Below, piece after piece: positions 32,818 to 36,167 of a stretch of DNA of 64,000 bases. Below the pieces are notes generated by a model that saw only the letters and a program-made list of their open reading frames with translations, did not search any database and was not told where the DNA came from. Position 1 is the first letter of the stretch, and the number at the start of each line of letters is the position of its first letter. Where the stretch lies: positions 16,038 through 80,037 of the forward strand of contig CAYRJU010000004.1 in the NCBI GenBank assembly GCA_964424735.1. The letters run 5' to 3'. The position numbers and the translations under genes are program-made. Origin of the DNA: an uncultured bacterium. Its GTDB lineage: Bacteria > Chlamydiota > Chlamydiia > Chlamydiales > SM23-39.

Positions 32818-33247
32818 TTTCCTCGATAAAGGTATTTTCCCAATAGTAGTGTTCGAGGAGCTTTTCTGTCGAGCGTTGTAAAATATGGTGGGCGATATAG
32901 AGAGCTTCGACAGAAGCAAGGCCCCATTCTGGATGAGGACAATCGGTTTGACGGCGAGGATAAGCTGTTTTGTAGCCTTGGGGAAGGCTGCGCGCTTCGA
33001 GATTCCAAGGAAGCTGTCGTTCCATAATCTGAGCCAGCCTCCAGGTTCCATCGATCAATAAAAGACCTCGATCTCGATCTGCAAGAGTTAGGGGGGGCGC
33101 CCCCACTTTCAAGAGGAGGTAGTGGGAAAGATCGGGAAGTTTGTGGATGGGATAGGTATAAAAGATGAGATCCTCTCTTTTCTCAAGGCCTCGAAGAGAG
33201 CACTTTTTTAAATTTTCTCGTCTGTGGCGTAAAATGACAGTTTTCAT
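32786..33247 (-). CDS. DUF367 / Tsr3-like aminocarboxypropyltransferase homolog
   Basis: HRRENLKKCS, LLIDGTWRLA, RSLP..YKTAYPR, LASVEAL, YYWENTF. Confidence 0.75.
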   Translation of the reverse strand: MKTVILRHRRENLKKCSLRGLEKREDLIFYTYPIHKLPDLSHYLLLKVGAPPLTLADRDRGLLLIDGTWRLAQIMERQLPWNLEARSLPQGYKTAYPRRQTDCPHPEWGLASVEALYIAHHILQRSTEKLLEHYYWENTFIEENDFSDPGSHQ

Positions 33248-35142
33248 AGGATGATTTTGTGGTCGGTGACTCTGAAGAGCTCTTTGGGGATTTCATAGAG
33301 AAAGCGGGATGGATTTGTCGGGTGGGCTTTTCCCATTTTTAGCCTGGCGCGCGCCATGCTGAGAGCGAGATGTTTTTCAGCCCTTGTGATGCCGACGTAA
33401 AAAAGGCGTCTTTCCTCTTCGAGTCCCGTCTCCTTCATGCTCTTTTCGTGGGGTAAAATCCCCTCTTCGAGCCCCACGAGAAAACAGATCGGAAATTCGA
33501 GTCCTTTTGCGCTGTGGAAGGTCATTAAATGAACGCAATCTTCTCTTTCTTTTTTAGAGGAGCTCACCTGACGGTTGAGAGTTGTATTGGCGATGAAATC
33601 TTGTAGAGTCTCCTCTTTGGACTCGGCAAGGGCATTGACACATTCTTGGACGTTTTCCCATTTGAATTCTCGCATCTTCTCCGATTTTACATCCTCTTCG
33701 ATGGCTTTTTTGTAGTTGATTTTCTCGATGAGCCATTGAAGCGCTTCGTGAAAGGGGGGATTTTTAAATCTCAAAACAGCCTCTTCGATGAGATCGACGA
33801 AGGCGCGCGTCGCTTTTTTTTCTTCTTTTTTGAGAAGGTGCCAAAGGGGGATATTTTGGGAGCGATTGACTTTCGTGAGCTCGTCGAGATAGGCATCGGA
33901 GATGCCTCTTCGAGGCACGTTGATGATTCTGAGAAGAGCTTCTTGATCGAGTGGATTGGCGATCACGCGCAAATAGGCGAGAAGATCTTTGATCTCGGCT
34001 CTTTCGGCAAACTCGAGCCCTCCAAATATTTCGTAGGGAATTCCCCGCATCCATTTTCCCTCCTGGTTTTGCCAGGAGGCTTGCAAAAGAGCCATTTCGA
34101 ATTGTCTGGAAAGGGCATTGGATCGATAGAGGATGGCCATGTCGCGCCAACGGTAATTTTGCTGTTTGAAACGGATGAGTCGATTCACGACAGCCGCCGC
34201 CTCTTCGACATCGGTTGGAGCATTGAACACTTCGATCGCTTCGAGCTCTTTCGATGTGCTCCACAAACTTTTGGCATGCCGATCCTGGTTATTTTTAATG
34301 ACCGCGTTGGCAGCTGCCAAAATAGAGGAGGTAGATCGGTAGTTTTGTTCCAGTTTGATCGTGTGATCGGCTTTGAAATGGAGGATATTTTTCACCTCTG
34401 CGCCTCGCCAGCCATAGATCGATTGATCATCATCTCCCACGACACAGAGGTTGTTGTATTTTGCGGCTAAAAGCTCCGCGAGTCGAAATTGGGCTGGATT
34501 GGTGTCCTGGTATTCATCGATCATCAGGTATTGATACCGGTCTTGATATTTTTCGAGCATAGTTGGGTGCTCTTCGAAGAGTTGGATCGTCAGGGTGATG
34601 AGGCTATCAAAACTCACCGCATTGTAGGCTCTCAAAGAAGAGTTCAGTCTCACATAGAGATCTTTGGAAAATGCATCGTGCCACGTAGCCTCTTCTGCAG
34701 ACAGTCCTTGATTGGCAGCTTCGGCAAGAGCTGCCCGAGTGGGAGCTAAAGAGGGGAGCTCTCCTTGAACGCCAAGCATGTCTCGTGCGAGCTGCTGGAT
34801 GAGCCTTTGCATGTCTTTTTCATCATACAGGCTAAATTCTCGCGTATAACCCAATTTTTCAATCTCTTTTCTCAGGACCTGCATGCAAAAACTGTGAAAG
34901 GTGCAAACAGTAACCCGCTTGGCTGTTTCTCCGATCAAACCTTCTACTCTGTGGCGCATTTCGGCGGCGGCTTTGTTGGTGAAGGTGAGCCCTAAAATGG
35001 CGTTTGGGTCAATTCCAAGGCCGATGAGATGGGCAATTCGATGGACAATGACTCTGGTCTTGCCGCTTCCCGCTCCGGCCAAGACGAGAAGGCGCCCTTT
35101 CACCGTTTCTACCGCTTTTCTCTGAGGAGCGTTCAATTGCAT
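33244..35142 (-). CDS. uvrD: UvrD/PcrA/Rep family DNA helicase
   Basis: LAGAGSGKT, TFTNKAA, IDEYQDTN, VGDDDQSIYGWRGA, LEQNYRS, HSAKGLEF, EEERRLFYVG. Confidence 0.95.
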   Translation of the reverse strand: MQLNAPQRKAVETVKGRLLVLAGAGSGKTRVIVHRIAHLIGLGIDPNAILGLTFTNKAAAEMRHRVEGLIGETAKRVTVCTFHSFCMQVLRKEIEKLGYTREFSLYDEKDMQRLIQQLARDMLGVQGELPSLAPTRAALAEAANQGLSAEEATWHDAFSKDLYVRLNSSLRAYNAVSFDSLITLTIQLFEEHPTMLEKYQDRYQYLMIDEYQDTNPAQFRLAELLAAKYNNLCVVGDDDQSIYGWRGAEVKNILHFKADHTIKLEQNYRSTSSILAAANAVIKNNQDRHAKSLWSTSKELEAIEVFNAPTDVEEAAAVVNRLIRFKQQNYRWRDMAILYRSNALSRQFEMALLQASWQNQEGKWMRGIPYEIFGGLEFAERAEIKDLLAYLRVIANPLDQEALLRIINVPRRGISDAYLDELTKVNRSQNIPLWHLLKKEEKKATRAFVDLIEEAVLRFKNPPFHEALQWLIEKINYKKAIEEDVKSEKMREFKWENVQECVNALAESKEETLQDFIANTTLNRQVSSSKKEREDCVHLMTFHSAKGLEFPICFLVGLEEGILPHEKSMKETGLEEERRLFYVGITRAEKHLALSMARARLKMGKAHPTNPSRFLYEIPKELFRVTDHKIIL

Positions 35143-35594
35143 TGCTTGAGAAGGCTCCTCATCTCATCCAAAATGTGGGCGAAGGTGGCCTGTTTTGCGC
35201 ACTGTCTGGGGATGACATTGAGTTCTACGAGGGGAAGAGAGTGGACCTGATGCCGAAAGGCTTCCCGGACGAGCCGTTTGAAGCGATTTCTCTCTGGGGC
35301 AGAGCCATACTTACTCGAGGCGCTGATCCCCAGCCGGCTCTTCCGAGCTGCCCGAAAATCTAGACACAGATAACGGCCTACGAGCCGCTTTCCCTCTTTC
35401 GATACCCTGAGAAAGTCCCGTCGTTTCAGGAGACGGGAGTGTTTAGAATATTTTAAGCGGCCAGCTTCTTTCTGCCTGCTCTGCGGCGGCGGTTGATCAC
35501 TTTGCGCCCCGAAGTGGTTTTCATTCTGGCCCGGAATCCGAAGGTCTTTTTTCGGCGGGTTTTGCTGGCTTGGTAGGTTCGTTTCATAGTTCAT
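35133..35594 (-). CDS. rnpA: Ribonuclease P protein component, possibly N-terminally extended across rpmH
   Basis: [15 protein letters not shown] and [14 protein letters not shown] (RNR motif); only usable canonical start is ATG 35594. Confidence 0.85.
35453..35587 (-). CDS. rpmH: 50S ribosomal protein L34 (absent from ORF track, 44 aa)
   Basis: [44 protein letters not shown]. Confidence 0.96.
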
Positions 35595-35624
35595 CCGAGT
35601 TAAGCTAGGTTTTTTTAAGTTCAA

Positions 35625-35685
35625 AGTTTACCCATTCGGGGACTTATCTTCAAGACTTGAATATAAATGGTAGGCTGTGTATAAA
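35625..35685. promoter_or_regulatory. Back-to-back sigma66/70-type promoters for rnpA-rpmH and rpmJ-rpsN
   Basis: Minus strand TTGAAG(35653)-N17-TAAACT(35625); plus strand TTGAAT(35657)-N17-TATAAA(35685) with extended TG. Confidence 0.65.
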
Positions 35686-35712
35686 TATGGCCTTTGAACC
35701 TGAGGAATATTC

Positions 35713-35850
35713 ATGAAAGTTGGAGCTTCTATCAAAGCCGATCCTTCAAAAGGGGACATCATTGTCCGCCGCCAAGGAAGGATTTATGTGATCAACAAGA
35801 AAGACCCTAACCGCAAGCAGCGCCAAAAAGGGCCTGCCCGTAAGAAATAA
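35713..35850 (+). CDS. rpmJ: 50S ribosomal protein L36, zinc-free type (absent from ORF track)
   Basis: [45 protein letters not shown], with GAGG SD. Confidence 0.93.
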
Positions 35851-35861
35851 TAAGAGGAAAC

Positions 35862-36167
35862 ATGGCCAAAAAATCGCAAGTTGCACGACAGCAGAAACGA
35901 GAGAGAATGGTAAAAAATAAATGGGACAAACGCAAAGCCCTGAAAGAGACTATTCTCGATATGACAAAGCCCATTGACGAGAGACTCTCTGCTGTGGATG
36001 CCCTCAACAAAATGCCAAAAAATTCCTCTAAAATCCGTCTGCGCAACCGTTGCCAATTTACGGGAAGATCGCGCGGTTTCTTGCGCAAATTCAAGCTTTC
36101 CCGCCTCTGTTTTCGCGAGATGGCGAACCAAGGACTTATCCCAGGCGTCGTGAAAGCCTCCTGGTAA
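35862..36167 (+). CDS. rpsN: 30S ribosomal protein S14 (long, zinc-free type)
   Basis: [37 protein letters not shown]. Confidence 0.96.

Follow-up and report, generated by a model that had tools for sequence, protein, structure and literature searches.

Ribosomal protein gene rpmH most likely nested out of frame within rnpA in environmental chlamydiae

Introduction

It is very rare for bacteria to have one gene nested out of frame within another when both products are essential. The closest described system is the rnpA/rpmH pair of Thermus (Feltens et al. 2003, PNAS 100:5724), which encodes the RNase P protein and ribosomal protein L34 and is taken here as PMC9841429 and the preprint bioRxiv 10.1101/520783 describe it. 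According to PMC9841429 the Thermus start region reads AUGGAUG, with 4 nt from start to start and a spacer of 1 nt, and a single GGAGG lies upstream of both AUGs. The pair is called the only described bacterial case of its kind (PMC9841429, NAR 2022), and the preprint of Meydan et al. 2019 (bioRxiv 10.1101/520783) counts it as one of two internal out-of-frame starts that are known. Here we analyze the rpmH-rnpA locus of an uncultured member of the Chlamydiota (Chlamydiales; SM23-39), located on a stretch of 64,000 nucleotides (GenBank assembly GCA_964424735.1, contig CAYRJU010000004.1, positions 16,038 to 80,037) that we call the window. All features named below lie on its minus strand unless stated otherwise. 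As read from the sequence, rnpA is probably translated from an ATG at 35594, which would place rpmH completely inside rnpA and provide RnpA with a 49-residue extension that is probably disordered. The locus is most likely a nested pair of the Thermus type that arose independently in environmental chlamydiae.

Several features are shared with Thermus. rpmH lies wholly inside rnpA, which is read in the -1 frame, and the rnpA start precedes that of rpmH by a few nucleotides, with both starts in one initiation region. RnpA receives a long N-terminal extension from the other frame of rpmH, and the window contains no conventional rnpA start downstream of rpmH. A preliminary description of this DNA had called the two start codons "4 nt apart (Thermus-like)". 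The frame relation is indeed the same and the spacer between the codons is 4 nt, but from start to start the distance is 7 nt (ATGAACTATG), compared with 4 nt in Thermus (AUGGAUG). One relative, locus L125 (genome G248, family f7), does share the Thermus spacing: its ATGs are 4 nt apart (ATGAATG), its L34 stop is TAA and it has no junction start. A Shine-Dalgarno (SD) sequence upstream of both starts, as described for Thermus, was not found here, and the only SD-like motif of the window, GGAUGA, contains the rnpA AUG. The two systems also differ in phylum and in G+C content (47% here), and expression of both proteins, demonstrated in Thermus, is predicted from the sequence for the chlamydial pair.

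Two further comparisons are useful. The ordinary rpmH-rnpA operon, in which the genes overlap by a start/stop signal (NTGA) or are separated by a short gap, has the same gene order, a promoter-proximal rpmH and the same RnpA core; in the window, however, TTA stands at the junction in place of a start, L34 ends in TAA, and the rnpA frame extends back across all of rpmH as far as an ATG. The ambiguous AUGUG/GUGUG starts of Escherichia coli (pqiA, tamA, narQ; PMC9841429) likewise have two out-of-frame starts that compete within one ribosome-binding region. They overlap by 2 nt and open short alternative reading frames, whereas here the starts are 7 nt apart and both products are proteins that are essential and conserved. 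Our literature searches for rnpA/rpmH with chlamydial names, or with the words nested or overlapping, returned no report for Chlamydiota or for a further taxon, in agreement with the preliminary description, which was aware of none for this phylum. The long rnpA open reading frame (ORF) is already annotated publicly: gene callers predict the same 153-aa RnpA in public collections (P0001) and RnpA proteins of 150-160 aa in more than 100 clusters. As far as we could find, it is nevertheless not discussed in the literature searched.

Results

rpmH lies entirely within the rnpA reading frame

The rpmH gene is located at 35587..35453 with the stop codon TAA at 35455-35453. It encodes an L34 of 44 aa that matches its profiles over the full length (Pfam Ribosomal_L34 PF00468, positions 1-44 of 44, E 2.8e-18, 66 bits; TIGR01030, E 7.6e-19, 67.7 bits). 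The long form of rnpA extends over 35133..35594 and consists of 153 codons followed by TGA (35135-35133), read in the -1 frame relative to rpmH (rnpA = rpmH minus 1). This frame is free of stops from ATG 35594 onward. The whole of rpmH is thereby contained, out of frame, within rnpA, and the complete overlap as well as the stop-free passage into the RNase P protein, both proposed in the preliminary description, hold on the sequence and on the Pfam match. The start region reads CGG-ATG(35594-35592)-AACT-ATG(35587-35585)-AAA-CGA, with a longer reading of cggATGaactATGaaacga.

Residues 50-152 of RnpA match Pfam Ribonuclease_P (PF00825, profile positions 2-108 of 109, E 2.3e-23), and the scores lie above the curated cut-offs for PF00825 (82.7 bits; cut-off 22.3) and TIGR00188 (62.9 bits; cut-off 38.35). 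The core recognized by Pfam and TIGR00188 comprises residues 50-153 (35136..35447) and carries the N-terminal motif SKHSRLL (consensus FPKxxRL) and the RNR motif. RnpA chains from the PDB match it at E 1e-12, and the AlphaFold model predicts helices and strands for residues 50-153 in the order H-E-E-E-H-E-H-H. rnpA is needed in this genome, which has no second copy of it and encodes an RNase P RNA of type A (rnpB, 209 bits).

Only one conventional start precedes the RnpA core within the predicted transcript

Upstream of the core the rnpA frame has two codons of the ATG/GTG/TTG type, namely TTG 35624 and ATG 35594. Listing the in-frame codons confirmed that none lies between 35594 and the core, as had been noted before. 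In relatives rnpA starts with an ATG, GTG or TTG that overlaps the rpmH TGA, and the residue encoded there heads the conserved motif (M/V/L)xFPKxxRL. At the aligned position the window has TTA (35454..35456): where gcT-TGA in relatives yields TTG, gcT-TAA in the window yields TTA. From this alignment the codon looks like a decayed junction start that disappeared with the change of the L34 stop. In 30 relatives, conservation of F3, K5, R8 and L9 in the core motif is 90% or higher. The rnpA frame is therefore read immediately after the L34 stop, which requires initiation at this stop or ahead of it. Near-cognate codons in the rnpA frame are limited to ATT at +50 and CTG at +158, and the CTG sits past the conserved N-terminal motif. 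No in-frame ATT, ATC, ATA or CTG occurs in the window between a point 25 nt ahead of the L34 stop and the conserved motif.

The layout recurs among relatives

We collected 148 loci. The main classification and the tree are based on 105 distinct rpmH-rnpA sequences from the first 121 loci; another 25 rpmH-rnpA loci (L124-L148), several of which repeat species already in the set, were classified separately. For breadth, 400 genomes of the phylum were screened and these 25 additional loci were read. The close relatives are all metagenome bins labelled Chlamydiae, Chlamydiales or Parachlamydiales. The commonest state, with 51 of the 105 loci after three had been reclassified by eye, is the NTGA overlap with stops in the rnpA frame inside rpmH. 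In twenty loci, termed nested only, the frame is open and rnpA has a start upstream but none at the junction. A further 17 lack the junction start and have a start inside rpmH, in 15 cases an ATG at +44 (-1 frame) and in two cases an ATG at +76 (+1 frame). Full nesting also occurs beyond the family of the window, in at least five other families overall: f7 (ATG at -4, -10), f15 (ATG at -16), f21 (TTG at -7), f37 (ATG at -7, -13) and f43 (TTG at -7). All five Chlamydiaceae genomes examined (f20) have the ordinary layout, in which rnpA begins, with GTG or ATG, a few bases past the L34 stop.

The open frame goes together with an upstream ATG, and an extended ORF with absence of the junction start

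L34 is rich in Lys and Arg, and a stop in the rnpA frame arises whenever a T-ending codon precedes a codon starting with AA, AG or GA. Closed-frame relatives contain such stop-making pairs, for example AGT-AAA at codons 8-9, have no ATG upstream and keep the NTGA start. In every open-frame genome of the first 30 loci codons 8-9 are stop-free, being AGC-AAA or another pair (ACG-AAA in L016), whereas most closed ones have AGT-AAA there. An extended ORF with a canonical start is present in 36 of 40 species without a junction start and in 16 of 65 with one (105 distinct loci). Openness over rpmH and the upstream ATG involve different nucleotides, and an in-frame upstream ATG is found in 31 of 42 open species compared with 8 of 63 closed ones; the other two frames carry one in about 10% of both groups. 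Within the clade defined by the tree (43 species; Shimodaira-Hasegawa-like approximate likelihood ratio test, 99) the frame is open in 33 of 43 species, where 15.5% would be expected from the T frequency at other third positions, although the corresponding binomial figure ignores kinship and is descriptive only. Outside the clade it is open in 9 of 62, about chance. T makes up 16% of the rpmH third-codon positions elsewhere in open-frame genomes. The preliminary description had proposed to look in related genomes for a frame that stays open together with an upstream ATG, and these counts support its reading. The rnpA start positions vary by lineage (-4, -7, -10, -13, -16, -25), a spread that speaks for an in-frame start having been selected repeatedly.

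The N-terminal extension appears constrained only to stay open

The 49 codons that precede the RnpA core and run over rpmH (35448..35594) lie outside the Pfam match. AlphaFold gives this part a predicted local distance difference test (pLDDT) score of 46-60 and no secondary structure, compared with about 90 for the core, and the modelled extension is thus probably disordered. Residues E4, Q11, E25 and Q34 are conserved among relatives; in our reading of the codons, this is what conserved L34 codons impose in the other frame. Among open-frame genomes the 4-fold sites in rpmH are close to saturated (identity 0.36-0.48). Closed-frame genomes resemble them in this, and the open-frame set shows no excess conservation over these that would indicate an extra amino-acid constraint on the extension. 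It appears therefore to be constrained only to stay open.

Promoter, leader and ribosome-binding motif

A -35-like hexamer TTGAAG (35648..35653) and, after a 17-nt spacer, a -10-like hexamer TAAACT (35625..35630) form the proposed rpmH/rnpA promoter. Aligned upstream regions of congeners have TTGAAG or TTGAAA at the first position, and TAAACT, TAGACT, TATCCT or TATTCT occur at the same aligned position as the second in relatives. The call rests on this conservation, as TTGAAG-17-TAAACT scores 8 of 12 and was unlisted by a consensus scan, which instead listed a weaker promoter-like site at 35735..35706. Transcription would start near 35618.

The resulting leader is about 30 nt long and A/U-rich. 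CGGATG (35592..35597) is an SD-like GGA(U)G of rpmH that contains the proposed rnpA ATG (35594-35592), and the extended motif GGAUGA is placed at SD distance from the rpmH AUG. In alignments, cGGATGaa is kept in open-frame relatives, whereas closed-frame relatives have GGAC or AGGTGA in its place. It had been cautioned earlier that ATG 35594 could be just part of the rpmH SD. This concern is answered in part, since the motif of closed-frame relatives occurs without an ATG. The 20 nt upstream of GGAUGA are A/U-rich and hold no SD, and folding of the start region and leader revealed no significant structure (z -0.62). Leaders of congener rpmH genes share an A/U-rich block (gaaatttaattttaaata in several), the version in the window being acttaaaaaaacctagcttaact at about 35598-35617. 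This block might enhance translation independently of an SD or serve as a regulatory site.

Discussion

The anatomy of the locus, its conservation and the absence of another usable start are observed features. Use of ATG 35594, the site of transcription initiation and a competition between both start codons would follow from them. Some observations weigh against initiation at ATG 35594. No SD is spaced so as to serve this codon, and the codon itself belongs to the SD-like rpmH motif. When L34 is resampled synonymously with the codon usage of this genome, the frame is open in about 10% of the draws, with a mean of two stops; one genome alone is thus not significant, and the weight comes from the relatives. 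The relatives bring their own difficulties. For the entire genus only metagenome bins are available, and the tree was computed by a quick method from loci with a good deal of missing data. Independent-pairs sign tests gave 3.5 versus 0.1 pairs for junction start against extended ORF and 3.4 versus 0.4 pairs for open frame against upstream ATG, both with a median p of 0.25; these tests point in the expected direction and are underpowered, with 7-8 pairs on supported branches. In 14 of the 105 loci both an upstream start and a junction start are present, and the long form may not be the sole product there. Finally, three of the 105 (L028, L080, L081) have a closed frame and lack ATG, GTG and TTG codons ahead of the conserved FPK motif. 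They could start at ATA or ATT in L028 (ATAA replacing ATGA), at CTG in L081 (CTGA) and at ATT in L080, so that non-canonical rnpA starts do occur in the phylum.

These three loci, which must use something of that sort, bear directly on the alternative that survives best, in which termination-reinitiation or a non-canonical start at or near the L34 stop yields an RnpA of normal length, and the open frame and the upstream ATG are irrelevant. An ATT, ATC or CTG is also found near the junction in 8 of the 20 nested-only species, and rnpA genes often have weak starts (PMC9945441). The junction in the window is TTA, though, with no near-cognate codon near it, and the remaining 12 of the 20 species have no such codon there either. 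Moreover, this explanation does not account for a frame that is open over 44 codons and accompanied by an in-frame ATG. We consider it unlikely for this locus, and the restart near the L34 stop that the preliminary description had kept as an option fits less well than initiation at ATG 35594.

Translation could instead begin at TTG 35624 (35622..35624), the first start codon of the mechanical ORF, which would give an RnpA of 163 aa that also covers rpmH. The weaker promoter-like site at 35735..35706 would bring this TTG into the transcript. However, the codon abuts the -10-like hexamer TAAACT, which is conserved in position among relatives, and would probably lie upstream of the transcript, as had been suspected before. 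A TTG at -37 is present in L001 and L017 only, whereas an ATG at -7 or -10 is widespread. A start at this unconserved codon is quite improbable.

We judge a fusion of L34 and RnpA by programmed -1 frameshifting within rpmH to be slightly less probable still. The heptamer A_AAA_AAG (35546..35552, read from 35552 to 35546; rpmH codons 12-14, CGA-AAA-AAG) is of the dnaX type and in the correct register, and rnpA is in the -1 frame. Yet it is not conserved in open-frame relatives (CGC AAG AAA in L003 and L007, AGA AAG AAG in L005) and is present in the closed-frame loci L011, L013 and L014, where the -1 frame has stops downstream of it in L013 and L014. A frameshift needs neither an open frame upstream of the heptamer nor a conserved in-frame upstream ATG, and both are seen. 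Nor does a stimulatory structure stand out (fold z -0.6, start region). We therefore reject a dnaX-type frameshift, which had been listed among the earlier alternatives, and regard the heptamer as incidental.

Least probable of all is that the long frame reflects chance in a Lys/Arg-rich gene with rnpA decaying or unexpressed, for although the frame of one genome would be open in about 10% of cases and the genome is a bin of 92% completeness, the single rnpA has an intact, well-scoring core with a confidently predicted fold, rnpB is present, and the same layout is found in dozens of independent assemblies and in the more than 100 protein clusters, with 33 of 43 clade species open where about 15% would be expected.

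Initiation at ATG 35594 suggests a mode of expression. One promoter (TTGAAG-17-TAAACT) would produce one mRNA, on which ribosomes pairing with GGAUGA would start at the rpmH AUG and thereby mask the rnpA AUG. Embedded in the SD-like rpmH motif and lacking a separate SD, the rnpA AUG would be used rarely, and little RnpA would be made relative to L34. Rare initiation would fit the low RnpA:L34 ratio in E. coli, about 1:130 (PMC9945441). As for its history, the locus may go back to an ancestor with the usual 4-nt start/stop overlap (NTGA). In the clade of environmental chlamydiae an in-frame ATG would have arisen in the ribosome-binding region of rpmH, and the -1 frame of rpmH would have been cleared of stops. 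The junction start would then have become dispensable, and here it would have been lost as the change of the L34 stop from TGA to TAA turned TTG into TTA.

More tentatively, the rnpA start of Chlamydiota may be mobile, having left the NTGA junction on repeated occasions for sites within rpmH (+44, -1 frame; +76, +1 frame) or past it (-4 to -25). In fully nested loci, an rnpA AUG embedded in the rpmH SD could then act as a built-in ratio setter, in which SD pairing and rnpA initiation are mutually exclusive and RnpA:L34 is kept low without a regulator. Nesting of this kind might be widespread and repeatedly evolved rather than an oddity of Thermus.

A second case, phylogenetically remote from Thermus and apparently independent, that is maintained in a large clade of environmental chlamydiae and found again in no fewer than five additional families would make this layout a repeatable evolutionary outcome of the rpmH-rnpA junction. 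The intermediate states are all present, from the junction start only through both starts to nested only, and the start spacings of 4 to 25 nt offer a natural series for studies of start-codon competition. There is also a practical side to this for annotation, as gene calling in these genomes can easily go wrong for rpmH or for the true start of rnpA.

Other overlaps and the surrounding genes

Two other types of overlap were observed. In the second type, found mostly in family f7, rnpA begins within rpmH, at a conserved -1-frame ATG at +44, and the genes overlap by about 90 nt (L067, L071, L073, L083, L086, L091, L093-L095, L098-L100, L105, L106, L113, L128, L129 and L132). These loci have no junction start, and their L34 stop is TAA or TAG. 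The ATG is made of an A-ending codon 15 and a Cys codon (TGY) at L34 position 16, which is His in most L34. The third type is represented by L119 and L120 (genomes G022 and G023) from the family of the window, in which rnpA is in the +1 frame with an ATG at +76 and no junction start; the extension is about 20 aa long and rich in Glu and Lys. In L018 (genome G002, same genus as the window) a 54-nt insertion is found between the L34 stop and the RnpA core. The frame is open from the ATG at -7, and the insertion carries an extra in-frame ATG at +167.

At its other end, rnpA overlaps by 10 nt (35133..35142; coordinates re-read) with the next gene, whose ATG is at 35142. This gene (33244..35142, 632 aa) encodes a UvrD/PcrA-like helicase, and rnpA is hence overlapped at both ends. 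A helicase gene of this kind follows rnpA in most of the chlamydial loci fetched. Divergent from rpmH/rnpA, on the plus strand at 35713-36167 of the window, are rpmJ (L36, 45 aa) and rpsN (S14, 101 aa), and this neighbourhood is kept in most relatives.

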